This document shows positions 38,829 through 45,239 of a stretch of 64,000 bases of DNA, piece after piece (within the stretch, counting starts at the first letter, position 1; each line of letters starts with the position of its first letter). The notes beneath the pieces are model-generated. The model had not been told where the DNA came from and ran no database searches. It saw only the letters and a program-made list of their open reading frames with translations. Source of the stretch: a virus; the IMG/VR virus record IMGVR_UViG_3300031992_000005, positions 224,001-288,000 of that record; one strand, 5' to 3'. The position numbers were made by a program, and so were the translations under genes.

Positions 38829-40115
38829 ATGGAAGTACGTGTGAGATGTTGTGGTGTTGGACCCCAGTCTTTCGCATCAGACGGTTCTCACATAAGTGAA
38901 GAGGTAGTTAGACAGTACTTAAACTCAGAAGACTATAGACTTTCTATTGACGGTAAGTTAACGATGGGTTATCTTACTCACAGGGGAAGATCGATCGAAT
39001 TCTTACCTAGCTCTATTGGTAATCCTGGAGTAAAAAAGGTAATTGGTAGAGATGATGCAGGTCTTTGTGTTGGTGAAAATCTTCCTACTTTTACACACTA
39101 TGTGAAAGAATTTTACATCGAAGATGTTCCGGGTCAAGGTCCTTGGCTTTGTGCATTGGTACATATTTTTGATGAGAAGGATGGGTTTGATCAAATTGCA
39201 ACAGAAAATATTAAGCGATTAAAAGCTCTTATTCGGAGTGGTGTTCGTCTTACCTGCTCATTAGTAGTTCTTGCTTTCTGGTCTTCTGAAAATGGTAATG
39301 GAGTAGATGAGTGTAAGAAGATTAAGGCAATTAAGAGTCTGGATTGGACTGTTAATCCTAGTTTTGGCCCATTAGCTCGTATTACCGAAGTCTATGACGA
39401 TGACCAACCTATGAAGGATGACCTTATTAAAACTTTTTCTGAGGTAGAGGGAGACAGTGATTTTATTAAGTCTCAGCCTAACAAGGAAGGTGAAATTAAG
39501 GTTAAGGTATACTCAGACCTAAGTAGTTTCGGAGATATGCCAAAAACTTCGAAGATTGGCGGTAGATTTACTGAATTAAAGGCAAAAGAATTTTCTAGTG
39601 TATGTACGATTACAGTAGATTCCTCTTCACCAGCAGTACAGAAAGAATTTACAGTTGCTACTATAAAAGAGCGTGTAAGATATGCTAAGTTTTCTCCAAG
39701 AATGAGATTTAGAAGATTATTCTTGGAATATAAGCAGTACGTTAAGCAATCGGGGGGTGCAGATAAGATCGATCCTGAGACGCTTAAAATTTTAAAGTCG
39801 CTCTTCTTATCTGATATTAATCAGATCTTCACGGGTCTTACTTCAGAAATTATTGCCGGAAAGCAGATTAATACACTCATTGGTGCAGCTTCTCTAGGTA
39901 AAGGTGTTAGACAGGCAGCTCAAAAATTACAGCTACCTTATAGAATGGCTTTCCAGGAGATGCAGAAAACTGGTAAAATTACTCCAATGAGATTTGAAAA
40001 GATTAAGACTGCTTATACAGAATTTTCTAAGGCAATGGTTGAGGAGGTATTTGGTGAGGGTCCTATCCCAGAAGGTTTGGAAGAAGAAATTAAAAATGAG
40101 GAGGGAAAACAATGA
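38829..40115 (+). CDS. prohead protease candidate (T4 gp21-like N-terminal domain) with helical C-terminal extension
   Basis: MGYLTHRGRS, LKALIRSGVRLTCSLVV and IKSLDWTVNPSF parallel T4 gp21 LMELEHPE, LIKAGLPIGVSSRG and ITWDIVAEPS (His and Ser regions), compared from memory. It lies upstream of the scaffold-like and capsid genes. Confidence 0.5.
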   Translation: MEVRVRCCGVGPQSFASDGSHISEEVVRQYLNSEDYRLSIDGKLTMGYLTHRGRSIEFLPSSIGNPGVKKVIGRDDAGLCVGENLPTFTHYVKEFYIEDVPGQGPWLCALVHIFDEKDGFDQIATENIKRLKALIRSGVRLTCSLVVLAFWSSENGNGVDECKKIKAIKSLDWTVNPSFGPLARITEVYDDDQPMKDDLIKTFSEVEGDSDFIKSQPNKEGEIKVKVYSDLSSFGDMPKTSKIGGRFTELKAKEFSSVCTITVDSSSPAVQKEFTVATIKERVRYAKFSPRMRFRRLFLEYKQYVKQSGGADKIDPETLKILKSLFLSDINQIFTGLTSEIIAGKQINTLIGAASLGKGVRQAAQKLQLPYRMAFQEMQKTGKITPMRFEKIKTAYTEFSKAMVEEVFGEGPIPEGLEEEIKNEEGKQ

Positions 40116-40966
40116 AAAGATTAAAGATTTTCTCTAGTCCAGATCGCATTATTTTCCCTAGAAGGAAAATTTTCTCAGGAGATGCTCCAACAAATGAAGG
40201 TGGAATGGTATTAAGAGAACTGGTTTGTAGAGACTGTGGTACAGTTATTACCTCTTCTCAGCATCCAAGTCATGCGATTTGCCCTAATTGTGGAGGTACT
40301 CGCCTCGATATTAAGTTTTTATCACCAAGACAAGATACCGAAAGAGATCCACATAAAGAAGAGAATATTAAGCCAGAGGAGTATAGAAAGCCTATCTTTG
40401 GTGATGCAGAATATCAAAAGAGTCTTAGGGAATTCAGCGGAAAAACTATTCCAAAGTCTACTTTTGAAAAAAGATTTTCTGAAACACAGGCAGAGGGCTT
40501 AATAGAGAAGGGATTTGCTACGGTTGAGGGTGATTATGTAATTATTGATCCTATCAGCTATGAAGCAGAGAAGACATTCTCTAAATTGATTATATCAGTA
40601 ACTAAAACACTAGAGTTAGATCCTGATATAGTTAGCGGAAAGATTGATAGAAGTAGTGTGATCGATCATCTGGAGGAGGATCATAGACTGCCAGAGAAAG
40701 GAATTATGGTTATCAAGAAGGCTCATGGGCTACCACTTGAGAGTCATATGTTCTGCGAGGATTCTTGGGTAGAAGATTCTGGCATTATTCCAGATCTTGA
40801 ACTAGAATATAATAATCAAAGTTTTGGCGTAGATCAATTTCTATCGATCCTACATGACCGTTATCCAGATGCCCCAGAGAATATTTTAGATATTCTTATA
40901 AAAGAGGGTGTTGTTCGATTAGACGGTACTCAAGTAACAATTCAGAGTAATAGTATTAAAAACTAA
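40112..40966 (+). CDS. zinc-ribbon protein of the head module
   Basis: CRDCGTVITSSQHPSHAICPNCGG (CxxC...CxxC). Contains five [KR]x[FY]S sites: KIFS twice, REFS, KRFS, KTFS. Confidence 0.65.
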   Translation: MKRLKIFSSPDRIIFPRRKIFSGDAPTNEGGMVLRELVCRDCGTVITSSQHPSHAICPNCGGTRLDIKFLSPRQDTERDPHKEENIKPEEYRKPIFGDAEYQKSLREFSGKTIPKSTFEKRFSETQAEGLIEKGFATVEGDYVIIDPISYEAEKTFSKLIISVTKTLELDPDIVSGKIDRSSVIDHLEEDHRLPEKGIMVIKKAHGLPLESHMFCEDSWVEDSGIIPDLELEYNNQSFGVDQFLSILHDRYPDAPENILDILIKEGVVRLDGTQVTIQSNSIKN

Positions 40967-40969
40967 AAT

Positions 40970-43759: not shown

Positions 43760-43787
43760 TAACTATTAAAATAATTAATATAATAAT

Positions 43788-45239
43788 ATGACTGATTTTT
43801 CGTATCTCATGAGTAATCCTGACATGCAGGTTGCTCTTAGAAATAGTTCAGTATCTGCAGAAGATGCTGCAATTCGTGGTAGAGAATATGCAAAGATGTT
43901 CTCTCGTAATGCGGAGATGTTGGATACTCTCGGTATGGGCCGTAATTCTAACCTCCTTCAGAAGACTTTCTCTGGCTATGCAGAGACTCCACTTCTTAGC
44001 ACTCAGTATTTTAATGCATCTGTTGCTTCTTATGTAAGCTCTTTTGCAGGTTACATGAGTATTGAACGTGACTTCGACCAGCCTAATGGCTTGTTCTATT
44101 GGTTCGATGTTCTTGGTGTAACAGACCTTCGTCCAGTTATTCCTAACCTCGGTCCAGATAACTATCAGGATATTCAGACTATGGGTTACTTCGAGCTTGA
44201 CAATCAGATCGAAGCTAGCGGTAGCTATGCTCCAATCGTTGGTCGTAAGTTGATCCCAGGTACAGTACGAGTTAAGATCGTTAACAATGATGATACTAAG
44301 TCTGAACTCGTAGATGACGGTCAGGGTCACTTCATGGCTGTTCCAGGCGTACTTGATGCTGCAACGGACGCTACAATCAACTATCTCAGTGGTAATATTA
44401 CCTTTAAGCTTGCAAACCCAGCAGTAAAATCTGTTAAGGTCGTAGGTAAGGAAGATGTAACTGGTACTCCTAGTTGCACAACTGGTACTGCAAGTACTCA
44501 TGCAAATGACAAGCGTTTCATCGCTAAGATGCAGCAGCTTGGTCTTAGCACAGTTCCTGATATGCTCGTAGCTGAATATAACATTGCAGCTCTCGGCGCA
44601 CTCAAGAAGGCAACTGGCTCTGATATGGCTACATTCTTGTTCACTAAGCTTCGCGAGATCTATACTAAAACTATCAACTATAAGCTGGTAACTACTCTTG
44701 AGAATGGTTATACCGGTAACACTATTGATGATCTTGATCTTTCTAATGGTCCTACTTCTGGTCTTGCTCAGAATTTCTACGATTATCGTTCTCGTGTAGA
44801 CCTCTTTGACTCTTTCTTGATCAACGTTGAGTCTGCACTCGCTACAAAGGCAGTTAAGGGCGTTAAGACCACTGCTTATGTTGCAGGTAATCGTGCAAGT
44901 AACCAGTTCCAGAAGGGTGGTATCATCGGTAAGTGGGAATCTAACACTAAGATGTCTTATATCAATGACCTCCTTGGCTGGTACAATGGTATTCCAGTAC
45001 TACGGAGTACAGATATTGCAGAGGAAGATGGCGAAGGTACATTCTACGCTATTCACAAGACTGCTGATGGTCAGATGGCTCCACTTGCACGTGGTATCTA
45101 TATGCCTTTGACTGATACTCCAACTATTGGTAACTACAACAACCCTACTCAGATGGCTGCTGGTATCTACTACCAGGAAGGTGTTCGAGTAATGGCTCCT
45201 GAACTTGTTCAGAAGGTTACATTCAAGGTTGGTTTCTAA
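43788..45239 (+). CDS. major capsid protein (T4 gp23-like)
   Basis: 483 aa. C-terminal TQMAAGIYYQEGVRVMAPEL resembles T4 gp23 NEMDAGIYYAPYVALTPL. Codon usage is visibly different and C/T-rich at third positions, which gives shadow ORFs in other frames. A strong terminator follows. Confidence 0.7.
   Translation: MTDFSYLMSNPDMQVALRNSSVSAEDAAIRGREYAKMFSRNAEMLDTLGMGRNSNLLQKTFSGYAETPLLSTQYFNASVASYVSSFAGYMSIERDFDQPNGLFYWFDVLGVTDLRPVIPNLGPDNYQDIQTMGYFELDNQIEASGSYAPIVGRKLIPGTVRVKIVNNDDTKSELVDDGQGHFMAVPGVLDAATDATINYLSGNITFKLANPAVKSVKVVGKEDVTGTPSCTTGTASTHANDKRFIAKMQQLGLSTVPDMLVAEYNIAALGALKKATGSDMATFLFTKLREIYTKTINYKLVTTLENGYTGNTIDDLDLSNGPTSGLAQNFYDYRSRVDLFDSFLINVESALATKAVKGVKTTAYVAGNRASNQFQKGGIIGKWESNTKMSYINDLLGWYNGIPVLRSTDIAEEDGEGTFYAIHKTADGQMAPLARGIYMPLTDTPTIGNYNNPTQMAAGIYYQEGVRVMAPELVQKVTFKVGF

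Follow-up and report, generated by a model that had tools for sequence, protein, structure and literature searches.

The recurring [KR]-x-[FY]-S motif is most likely the cut signal of a T4-like head-maturation protease in a gut jumbo phage

Why does the short motif [KR]-x-[FY]-S recur in a row of neighbouring phage head genes and also end the N-terminal leader of many proteins encoded around them? The window analysed here is a stretch of 64,000 nucleotides (positions 224,001 to 288,000 of IMG/VR record IMGVR_UViG_3300031992_000005). The phage it comes from is an uncultured jumbo myophage of the gut and a relative of the Jug gut phages, whose predicted hosts are Bacteroides or Phocaeicola (PMC12880540) and which the Jug paper calls T4-like from structural annotation. 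We believe that 38829-45239 probably encodes a T4-type gp21/gp22/gp23 maturation system, in which [KR]-x-[FY]↓[S>G,T,A] is the cut and also ends the cargo leader. The cassette would run from a gp21-like serine protease with a linker and docking domain, through a Zn-ribbon core protein and an acidic repeat scaffold, to a gp23-like capsid protein.

The motif in the core, scaffold and capsid proteins

The strict motif [KR]-x-[FY]-S was counted in each protein and compared with 2000 composition-preserving shuffles of that protein. The four proteins of 38829-45239 together hold 23 copies against 1.06 expected (z = 20.7): 13 against 0.22 in the scaffold-like protein (40970-43759), five against 0.21 in the Zn-ribbon protein (40112-40966), three against 0.39 in the 38829-40115 product (p about 0.007) and two against 0.25 in the capsid protein (43788-45239; p about 0.03), where the enrichment is modest. 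Control motifs in the head proteins behaved otherwise. The reversed motif S[FY]x[KR] is absent (0 against 1.05 expected in the four proteins), as is [DE]x[FY]S (0 copies), and [KR]x[LIVM]S occurs once against 3.3 expected. Neither the T4 motif (L/I)xE (23 against 27 expected) nor the phiKZ/SPN3US motif (S/A/G)xE (42 against 44) is enriched in the four proteins, and the first of these results indicates a specificity that differs from that of T4, as the sequence-only reading had supposed. Its impression of an excess in the head module also survives correction for composition: the 29 early proteins of 1-27 kb contain 6 copies against 6.7 expected, and the other 33 late proteins, taken without their first 14 residues, contain 10 against 5.95, which is not significant. 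The codons of the motif vary (five K/R codons, and Ser from both the TCN and AGY families), which places the selection at the protein level. The sites are kept across proteins at 36-50% identity and in 57 distinct loci.

The features of the core and scaffold genes are as follows.

40112-40966, plus strand: Zn-ribbon protein, 284 aa, candidate prohead core protein (motif count, weak Pfam matches)
40124-40135 and 40166-40177, plus strand: KIFS and KIFS, doubled N-terminal leader of the Zn-ribbon protein
40427-40438, 40469-40480 and 40571-40582, plus strand: internal Zn-ribbon sites REFS, KRFS and KTFS
40970-43759, plus strand: acidic scaffold-like protein, 929 aa, 28% D+E, 13 strict sites
41456, 41495, 41699, 41954, 42029, 42320 and 42359, plus strand: first nucleotides of scaffold sites 1-7
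42401, 42662, 42701, 43043, 43340 and 43709, plus strand: first nucleotides of scaffold sites 8-13
42302-43327, plus strand: three 114-residue scaffold repeats, 60-67% identical
43709-43720, plus strand: last scaffold site, RTFS, preceding the conserved C-terminal tail
43721-43756, plus strand: conserved scaffold C-terminal tail, ENDTLISWLANK

All the sites listed by the sequence-only reading are present where it placed them, and the five it assigned to the Zn-ribbon protein are exactly those counted above. The Zn-ribbon matches of this protein in Pfam are weak and cover residues 36-65; its relatives carry 4-8 motif sites each. In the scaffold the density of motifs stands, while GEFS at residue 679 drops out of the strict set, having no K/R. 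The expectation of one site per scaffold repeat, giving fragments of about 114 aa, does not hold, as each repeat has three sites and the predicted fragments are of about 13, 14 and 85-100 residues. Six further scaffold sites had not been listed. Nine of the 13 sites lie within or beside repeated units, and the repeat copies are not independent events; with the three repeats collapsed to one, about 10 independent sites are left against about 0.2 expected. Relatives of the scaffold have 9-18 sites, and all retain the C-terminal ..EAQFSEKxFS..DTL[VI]SWL.

The capsid gene has the following features.

43788-43973, plus strand: predicted N-terminal propeptide, residues 1-61/62
43893-43904, plus strand: internal propeptide site KMFS, residues 36-39
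43962-43973, plus strand: predicted maturation site KTFS, residues 59-62
43974-45239, plus strand: predicted mature major capsid protein, a putative distant gp23-like protein, beginning at G63, or at S62 for a cut at F↓S

Both capsid sites, which had already been read within the first 62 residues, are invariant in 19 distinct close N-termini, with indels in the segment between them. KTFS is kept in all 16 sequences at 36-47% identity and KMFS in about half. We then compared the window protein with 82 representatives of the family clustered at 50% identity (83 sequences in all). F61, S62 and G63 are the best-conserved columns of the N-terminal region, position 61 being F/Y in 77 of 83 and position 62 S/A/T in 77 of 83 (A in 11). 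No feature of the capsid N-terminus is more strongly conserved in the family as a whole than the candidate cut at F61/S62 of the earlier reading. K59-T-F-S62 stands just before the conserved core and after a variable pro-region, a candidate protease site at their junction. The link of this protein to the gp23 family is transitive. By tblastn it matches two proteins annotated as major capsid proteins, one from E. coli phage IME392 (27% identity, E 7e-7) and the other from Cobetia phage Carin-5, and the IME392 protein passes the gathering score of Pfam Gp23 (PF07068; 26.5 bits against 24.4), while neither the window protein nor 16 relatives match Gp23 directly. The AF2 model of the capsid protein is poor (pLDDT 44), and the N-arm is not locatable on it.

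A candidate protease and its linker

The gene directly upstream of these candidate substrates has the following features.

38829-39398, plus strand: prohead protease domain, residues 1-190 of 428 aa (AF2 fold, Foldseek against BFVD)
38979-38981, plus strand: candidate catalytic His51, invariant in homologues
39258-39260, plus strand: candidate catalytic Ser144, invariant in homologues
39399-39656, plus strand: disordered linker, residues 191-276, with four motif copies (low pLDDT, conserved islands)
39429-39440, plus strand: linker motif KTFS, predicted self-cleavage site
39504-39515, plus strand: linker motif KVYS, residues 226-229, predicted self-cleavage site
39585-39596, plus strand: linker motif KEFS, predicted self-cleavage site
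39642-39653, plus strand: linker motif KEFT, residues 272-275, predicted self-cleavage site
39657-40115, plus strand: helical C-terminal domain, residues 277-428 (AF2 helices; kept in all homologues)

The AF2 model of the protease domain has a pLDDT of about 80-90, and its top Foldseek match in BFVD is the T4 prohead protease U9 (E 3e-8, probability 1.0). Further BFVD matches include a prohead core serine protease, a capsid maturation protease and COG3740, with target-normalised TM-scores up to 0.66-0.68 for single-domain matches. A Foldseek search of the PDB gave no significant match for the product, T4 gp21 included. Across 27 homologues, the most distant at 49% identity, H51, S144, D75 and D76 do not vary. 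The predicted structure and the alignment together indicate a prohead-protease or assemblin-like fold with an invariant His/Ser pair, which agrees with the earlier designation of this product as the protease.

Sequence comparison ties the product to gp21 weakly (E 0.01-0.07). In hhalign, H51 falls weakly onto His85 of T4 gp21 (E 0.07 over 30 columns); a further weak alignment (E 0.012), with an S77-like protein of phage IME392, pairs H51 and S144 with the His and Ser of that protein. Plain local alignment of the product with gp21 is not significant. His and Ser are 93 residues apart here compared with 55 between His85 and Ser140 of gp21. No protease model matched the product in Pfam and PHROG profile searches, PF03420 (Peptidase_S77) included; this profile is touched by one of the 27 homologues at E 0.2.

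The linker has a pLDDT below 50 at residues 192-234 and 256-276. In alignment A1 it varies in length and sequence except for the motif copies, whose constants are F203/S204, K226/F228/S229, K251/K253/S256 (with S241/K242 just upstream) and a fourth [QE]K-x-[FY]-[ST]. Among the protease sites in the sequence-only reading, KEFSS and KTFSE are retained, and AKFSP is not, since its K is at -2 and its F is L in most relatives. Two further linker copies, KVYS at 226-229 and KEFT at 272-275, had been overlooked. The C-terminal helices (276-408) are modelled at pLDDT 86-93, and this domain presumably serves in docking to the core or scaffold and is parted from the enzyme when the linker is cut.

In a sister subclade with shorter leaders (locus L104), the motif is kept in the leaders, the scaffold, the capsid protein and the protease linker, where KQFS, KIFS, REYS and KIYG follow the protease domain (L104:11586-13091). 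Locus L160 represents a very distant clade; its capsid site is IANFSG, and the acidic protein encoded upstream contains ten [ND][FY]S against 0.52 expected and two [KR]x[FY]S against 0.52. The window scaffold is the opposite, with 13 [KR]x[FY]S and one [ND][FY]S. As the capsid site and the scaffold of the distant clade are both of the form [ND]-[FY]-S, the covariation, judged from sequence, points to one shared reader.

The leader and the possible readers of the motif

Some 20 ORFs in the 27.6-56 kb region begin M-I-[IK]-[LF]-[RK]-x-[KR]-x-[FY]-[S/G/T/A] (consensus M-I-I-L-R-x-K-x-F-S). The leader is 9-10 residues long, and its last four residues are the motif enriched in the scaffold, the capsid protein and the protease. 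Related loci supplied 66-68 distinct leaders in which the spacing between Met1 and the motif is constant. If the cut falls after F/Y, the N-terminal residue exposed would be S, G, T, A or V for 61 of 66 leaders and N-end-rule destabilising for 3 of 66, compared with 15 of 66 for a cut one residue later. In about a quarter of the leaders G, A or V replaces Ser. A GNAT acetyltransferase is among the tagged proteins, and leader-bearing genes are also found among the tail genes at 46.5-56 kb.

The protease would read [KR]-x-[FY] followed by a small residue (S, then G, T, A). The scissile bond may be F↓S or the one after S; we infer that the cut most likely follows the aromatic residue, with a basic P3, an aromatic P1 and a small P1'. 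Once the prohead is assembled, the enzyme inside it would cleave the linker of its own chain at 3-4 sites and so free the catalytic domain. It would break the scaffold and the Zn-ribbon protein down to fragments of 11 to about 165 residues able to exit the shell, which would also detach the conserved DTL[VI]SWL tail of the scaffold, and would take the first 61 residues off the capsid protein. The 9-10-residue leader M-I-[IK]-[LF]-[RK]-x-[KR]-x-[FY]↓S would be trimmed from the approximately 20 tagged proteins, and the N-terminus of the putative portal would probably be trimmed too. The leader may act like the capsid-targeting sequence of T4, its hydrophobic-basic front directing incorporation into the core and its end serving as the cut site.

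Enrichment, conservation and covariation by themselves indicate no more than a shared reader, which need not be a protease. The motif might be a short linear docking motif that stays uncut and through which, while the prohead assembles, core, cargo and capsid proteins all attach to one partner; the inner surface of the capsid, the portal and the C-terminal domain of the 38829 product are examples of such a partner. The conserved leader front M-I-I-L-R suggests a binding role beyond a cut site, and the capsid-targeting sequence of T4 is primarily a targeting signal. We nevertheless regard docking without cleavage as unlikely. The 13 scaffold copies, the site at the boundary of capsid pro-region and core, and the four linker copies resemble the cleavage systems of T4 and SPN3US; the large capsids of this lineage require scaffold removal; and the small residue after F/Y is typical of P1'.

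The motif might also be cut by a host protease or another phage protease in the cytoplasm. In Staphylococcus phage 80alpha, the host cysteine protease Prp trims L27-like leaders of the capsid and scaffold proteins at ..LNLQ(F/H)F↓A. Both systems have a short leader on capsid and scaffold proteins ending in an aromatic and a small residue, which here superficially resembles the Prp site ..LQFF↓A. A cytoplasmic enzyme could explain the leader genes scattered among tail genes; if any leader-bearing product is a tail protein, a prohead-confined protease could not reach it. The 38829 product is itself a candidate protease, identified by its predicted fold. However, M-I-I-L-R-x-K-x-F-S shares with ..LxLQxF↓A only the aromatic-small pair. 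Prp and L27 extensions are known as a trait of Firmicutes and allies. The hosts predicted for the related Jug phages (PMC12880540) belong to a different phylum. A phage gene with a serine-protease fold stands directly upstream of the substrates with four conserved motif copies in its linker, and covariation within phage lineages is more easily reconciled with a reader encoded by the phage than with one from the host. We consider another enzyme quite improbable.

Modification of the motif, such as phosphorylation of its Ser by a basophilic kinase (R/K-x-x-S), is formally allowed as [KR]-x-[FY]-S matches R-x-x-S, but it is very improbable, because the G, A or V at the Ser position in about a quarter of the leaders and the Ala in 11 of 83 capsid proteins cannot be phosphorylated, and no kinase is seen in the window. 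Chance, or a by-product of composition and of the internal repeats that hold or adjoin most scaffold sites, is refuted by the shuffle enrichment (z about 20), the empty reversed control, the sites left after the repeats are collapsed and the conservation across proteins and loci.

Comparison with known maturation systems

The prohead protease motif of T4 is (L/I)-x-E↓. T4 gp21 degrades gp22, gp67 and gp68, removes 65 residues from gp23, and trims the internal proteins and Alt, which bear a capsid-targeting sequence of about 10 residues (PMC9958956). The analogy with T4 drawn in the sequence-only reading proves close. In both, the protease, core proteins, scaffold and capsid protein are gene neighbours, and the protease has the prohead-protease fold (by predicted structure here). 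Several proteins begin with a leader of about 10 residues whose end is the protease motif (a candidate motif here), the scaffold (acidic here) is filled with sites, and the capsid propeptide is of similar length (a predicted 61-62 residues compared with 65). An enzyme is among the tagged cargo, the GNAT acetyltransferase here and the ADP-ribosyltransferase Alt in T4. Given a cut after F/Y, the two would also agree in having their determinants at P3 and P1 and a small P1'. The systems differ in the motif itself ([KR]-x-[FY]↓S here), in the additional 240-residue linker and helical domain of the protease, in the number of leader-tagged proteins (about 20 in 30 kb compared with a handful), in the scaffold (929 aa with 114-residue repeats, whereas gp22 has 269 aa), in the His-to-Ser spacing given above, and in that the window proteins have no Pfam S77 or Gp23 match.

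In phiKZ-like phages (SPN3US gp245, phiKZ gp175, 201phi2-1), one prohead protease processes the capsid, portal and many internal or ejection proteins, and self-cleavage removes its C-terminal part (PMC10052503). For SPN3US gp245 the cut follows A-x-E, Ser is the favoured P1' residue, each propeptide is cut several times, and the enzyme is its own substrate too (PMC10052503). These are likewise jumbo myophages with multi-cut propeptides and a Ser-preferring P1' (PMC10052503), but their A/S/G-x-E↓ motif is the one that is unenriched here, and their propeptides are mostly long (111-254 residues) in contrast to the uniform 10-residue leader. No sequence similarity to the window system was detected.

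Another system of the same fold class is found in eukaryotic viruses. Herpesvirus assemblin, a Ser/His protease, cleaves itself and its scaffold at (V/L)-x-A↓S, with Ser at P1' as at the predicted self and scaffold sites here. Its P1 is Ala and not aromatic, and it has no leader-tag system.

Taken together, [KR]-x-[FY]-S is most likely the cut signal of a T4-like head-maturation protease of previously undescribed specificity, a motif common to about 20 leader-tagged proteins, the scaffold, the capsid N-terminus and the protease's own linker.

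Motif enrichment in the head proteins

The motif [KR]-x-[FY]-S was proposed in the sequence-only reading as the cutting site of a prohead protease encoded in the head module, which consists of four genes:

from 38829, plus strand: protease candidate of 428 residues
40112-40966, plus strand: zinc-ribbon protein
40970-43759, plus strand: acidic scaffold-like protein
43788-45239, plus strand: capsid protein

Judged by 2000 composition-preserving shuffles of each protein, the scaffold-like protein has 13 copies of the motif where 0.22 are expected, the zinc-ribbon protein 5 (0.21), the 38829 product 3 (0.39) and the capsid protein 2 (0.25). 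The four proteins together hold 23 copies where 1.06 are expected (z = 20.7), while the 29 proteins of the 1-27 kb region hold 6 against 6.7 expected, which bears out the enrichment suspected earlier. Other late proteins, with their first 14 residues removed, contain 10 copies (5.95 expected). In the four head proteins the reversed motif does not occur, and the signal is lost when K/R is replaced by D/E or F/Y by aliphatic residues. The T4 motif (L/I)xE and the phiKZ motif (S/A/G)xE are both at expectation in the head proteins, in line with the expected departure from T4 specificity. The codons at the motif vary, with serine drawn from both TCN and AGY, so the constraint acts on the protein. 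An explanation at the nucleotide level, a conserved 5' coding sequence, is ruled out by this variation and by the existence of internal sites. Chance recurrence of the motif is excluded.

Every site that the sequence-only reading listed is in the sequence, and the lists were incomplete. KVYS and KEFT in the protease and six further sites in the scaffold had been overlooked; AKFSP, assigned to the protease, is not a motif site.

The early and late gene blocks are separated by a 1.56-kb gap (23597-25156) with no ORF of at least 60 aa on either strand. It contains about five copies of a unit of about 100 nt (23725-24240), each a GC-rich, terminator-like hairpin with a T-run followed by CCCCTTAATGCCTTATATATG, and a duplication (24480-24640 and 24887-25040, spaced by 407 nt). 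No Rfam family or tRNA was found anywhere in the window. At 15587-21359, about a dozen paralogous ORFs, each coding for 147-179 aa, stand in tandem; the products of three begin with MVELCI.

Conservation and covariation among relatives

The capsid gene region is 100% identical to an 88-kb IMG/VR contig (IMGVR_UViG_3300032030_000046). A capsid gene 68-80% identical to that of the window is found on 80 viral contigs, many of them of 340-400 kb and from gut metagenomes, and protein searches extended this to several hundred relatives on contigs of up to 428 kb, all named only "hypothetical protein". A tail-sheath match at 51003-53228 (Pfam/PHROGs) identifies the phage as a myophage; apart from this, Pfam and PHROGs searches of the four head proteins, TerL and neighbors gave only weak zinc-ribbon matches. 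A distant-mode blastn search of 38829-45239 against 50,697 phage records gave no match. [quoted passage not shown] As the window has about 35% G+C and its capsid identity to them is 75-80%, we regard its phage as a relative and not a member of the named groups.

The scaffold contains three 114-residue repeats, 60-67% identical, with three sites in each, and also a degenerate fourth repeat; about ten independent sites are left once the repeats are collapsed. Tandem Repeats Finder did not detect the 342-nt repeats because the DNA is too diverged, though they are clear at the protein level. The sites predict fragments of about 13, 14 and 85-100 residues instead of the fragments of about 114 residues foreseen at first. 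Across 57 distinct loci, the scaffold contains 9-18 sites, the zinc-ribbon protein 4-8, the protease 3-6 where the ORF is intact, and the capsid protein 2 (3 in one locus). In the same loci the scaffold begins with a leader-like ..T-R-F-M-x-[RV]-[ML]-F-S and always ends with ..E-A-Q-F-S-E-K-x-F-S-..-D-T-L-[VI]-S-W-L. A site right before this conserved C-terminal tail is what would be expected if cleavage detaches a shell-binding peptide.

The 43788 product matches proteins annotated as major capsid proteins in phages IME392 and Carin-5 (tblastn, 27% identity, E 7e-7), and the IME392 protein scores above the Pfam Gp23 threshold. An AF2 model of the capsid protein, made from a shallow alignment of 19 sequences sharing at least 73% identity, was unusable (pLDDT 44). 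KMFS and QK[TL]FS are both invariant in 19 distinct close N-termini, with substitutions and indels between them. At 36-47% identity the first site is kept in about half of 16 sequences and the second in all 16, where it reads [KR]-x-[FY]-[SA] (F is once replaced by L) and directly precedes the conserved G-Y-A-E...Q-Y-F-N-A-T core. Many of these 16 proteins also begin with a leader-like M...V-K-L-F-S of their own. A family-wide set of 83 sequences (82 representatives clustered at 50% identity and the window protein) has F/Y at the F61 column in 77, S/A/T at S62 in 77 and G at G63 in 60; these columns are better conserved than the core residues after them. The K59 column is K/R in only 44 of the 83.

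Capsid proteins without K/R at this column read x-N-F-S-G. One very distant relative lies on a short JGI 3300031662 contig (L160; genes 2-1759 and 1774-3291) and has the junction I-A-N-F-S-G. The acidic protein directly upstream of its capsid gene contains [ND]-[FY]-S 10 times and [KR]-x-[FY]-S only twice (0.52 expected for each), the opposite of the window scaffold, with 1 and 13. In a mid-distance clade (L164) and the sister subclade (L104), [KR]-x-F-S is kept in leaders, scaffold, capsid protein and protease linker. Two further contigs with distant capsid genes were too short for neighboring genes. Single distant capsid proteins (P0337, P0258) returned no loci as queries, and an alignment query with a contig search succeeded. 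The capsid junction and the scaffold sites change together, which argues that they share one reader and that this reader is not the same in every lineage. No other observation here speaks as strongly for a reader that the phage encodes and whose specificity co-evolves, and the covariation suggests an altered protease specificity in the distant lineage.

The protease candidate and the leader-tagged proteins

An alignment of 27 homologs of the 38829 product, down to 49% identity, shows a conserved N-terminal domain (residues 1-190) with invariant H51, D75, D76 and S144, a linker (191-276) of variable length and sequence, and a conserved helical C-terminal domain. D121 and D172 are invariant as well, and these four aspartates are candidates for an acidic S3 site facing K/R. 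The sole conserved islands in the linker are four copies of the motif:

copy 1: x-K-x-F-S (F203, S204)
copy 2: V-K-x-F-S (K226, F228, S229)
copy 3: L-K-x-K-E-F-S (K251, K253, S256)
copy 4: [QE]-K-x-[FY]-[ST]

The AF2 model (pLDDT 73 overall) is confident for the two domains, with most of the linker below 50. Foldseek against BFVD placed the T4 prohead protease U9 (E 3e-8) and a prohead core serine protease at the top, with a capsid maturation protease, a COG3740 head maturation protease and similar proteins among the further best matches. The model thus supports a prohead-protease fold, as first proposed for this product. Against the PDB, the full-length model gave only insignificant helical-bundle matches, probably dominated by the C-terminal domain, and the protease and capsid alignments, used as profiles, matched no PDB sequence. 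The sequence links to S77/gp21 are weak but consistent: one homolog matches Pfam Peptidase_S77 at E 0.2, and hhalign pairs H51 and S144 with the His and Ser of an S77-like protein (E 0.012) that adjoins the capsid gene of E. coli phage IME392, and places H51 weakly on His85 of T4 gp21 (E 0.07). A BLOSUM local alignment with gp21 was not significant. H51/S144 is a plausible catalytic pair. An I-R-[SA]-G-x5-S string before the Ser, seen by eye in this product and in gp21, was given no weight.

In Jug-like contigs (L024-L069), the ORF at the protease position upstream of the zinc-ribbon gene has only 69 aa in most cases, and other loci have fragments of 245-327 aa there; apparently the gene is split. 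[quoted passage not shown]

About 20 ORFs at 27663-56274 begin with the leader M-I-[IK]-[LF]-[RK]-x-[KR]-x-[FY]-[S/T/A/G], for example those starting at 32853, 33673, 34507, 38214, 46892, 47576, 50277, 54093 and 54667. The true start of the 28264 and 36976 ORFs is probably an internal ATG 6 bases downstream (M-I-I-L-R and M-I-I-I-R). Related loci contain 66-68 distinct leader versions, in which F/Y is followed by S (37), G (8), T (7), A (6) or V (3). Several leader-tagged ORFs sit among tail genes (46.5-56 kb). One encodes a GNAT acetyltransferase (27663-28145; Pfam PF13508, E 1e-13), a candidate packaged and injected enzyme by analogy with T4 Alt. Several others are Gly-rich and hydrophobic, as internal or ejection proteins would be expected to be. 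The regions 37539-38132, 47805-48107 and 34181-34414 encode small proteins in which long hydrophobic stretches are rich in Gly and Ala (for example GGVGGLGGTAAGNIAASIA); the leader, or a variant of it, is present in the first two and absent from the 34181 product, and all may be membrane-active ejection proteins.

The putative portal (30201-31907) is 28% identical (E 3e-54) to L104:5479-7029 in the sister subclade and weakly resembles the ORF that follows TerL in phage IME392. Its residues 10-13 are K-I-F-G (30228-30239), where the sister-clade homolog has K-S-F-S, so the portal may be N-terminally trimmed too.

Proposed processing and its alternatives

The cassette parallels that of T4 head maturation, whose genes stand in the order 67-68-21-22-23. 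T4 uses a capsid-targeting sequence of about ten residues, and gp21 trims internal proteins and Alt, degrades gp22, gp67 and gp68, and takes 65 residues off gp23 (PMC9958956). The SPN3US protease gp245 cleaves behind A-x-E and prefers Ser at P1'; it cuts propeptides at several places and frees itself of its own C-terminal part (PMC10052503). Laid on this P3-x-P1↓P1' geometry, [KR]-x-[FY]-[small] would be cut after F/Y, and P1 would be aromatic instead of the Glu of T4 and phiKZ. With such a cut the new N-terminus would be S, G, T, A or V for 61 of 66 leaders and an N-end-rule destabilizing residue for only 3, compared with 15 if the cut fell one residue later. The geometry and these counts favor F/Y↓S as the scissile bond. 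A cut after the small residue is possible, as in assemblin, where P1 is Ala.

A docking motif that is never cleaved would account for a shared reader. It accounts less well for the placement at junctions, for the density of sites in a scaffold that must be removed and for the small-residue rule, and we consider it unlikely. Less likely still is that some other protease, for instance a Prp-like enzyme of the host, does the cutting: the leader sequence, the predicted host phylum, the lineage-specific covariation and the neighboring protease gene, which carries sites itself, all speak against this. Phosphorylation is very improbable, since G, A and V occur where the Ser would have to be.

The reading that we put at slightly better than even is that a large clade of abundant gut jumbo phages, the Jug phages and their relatives, brings dozens of cargo proteins into the capsid, among them enzymes such as the acetyltransferase, by means of a portable 10-residue tag, M-I-I-L-R-x-K-x-F↓S, for delivery into Bacteroidota. 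A gp21-like protease, its P1 changed from acidic to aromatic with a basic P3, would remove the tag, and its specificity would co-evolve with all substrates from lineage to lineage (K-x-F-S in one, N-F-S in another). For uncultured phages the motif would then be a sequence-only predictor of the packaged and ejected proteome and of mature protein termini.

Systems that combine a prohead protease with a targeting leader and degradation of the scaffold are already well known. What appears new, judging from sequences and models, is the predicted specificity (basic P3, aromatic P1), a uniform short tag on so many proteins, the linker architecture bearing self-sites and the visible co-evolution of motif and substrates. 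Neither leader nor cleavage motif is present in the account of Jug phages (PMC12880540), and literature searches for leader strings and a described motif returned nothing relevant.

Prohead proteases with defined cleavage motifs come, to our knowledge, from only a few cultured phages (T4, phiKZ-like, HK97-type); here the motif is readable from the genome of an uncultured clade. The T4 capsid-targeting sequence has already been used for loading foreign proteins into capsids, and the tag could in principle serve likewise. Should the motif be correct, the mature capsid protein would start at S62 (SGYAETPLL...) or G63, and the fate of the scaffold and the self-processing scheme of the protease could be read. 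It would also give a rule for listing proteins probably packaged in the head and injected into Bacteroides/Phocaeicola, about 20 of them in the window, and a natural case of protease specificity co-evolving with its substrates inside one capsid lineage.
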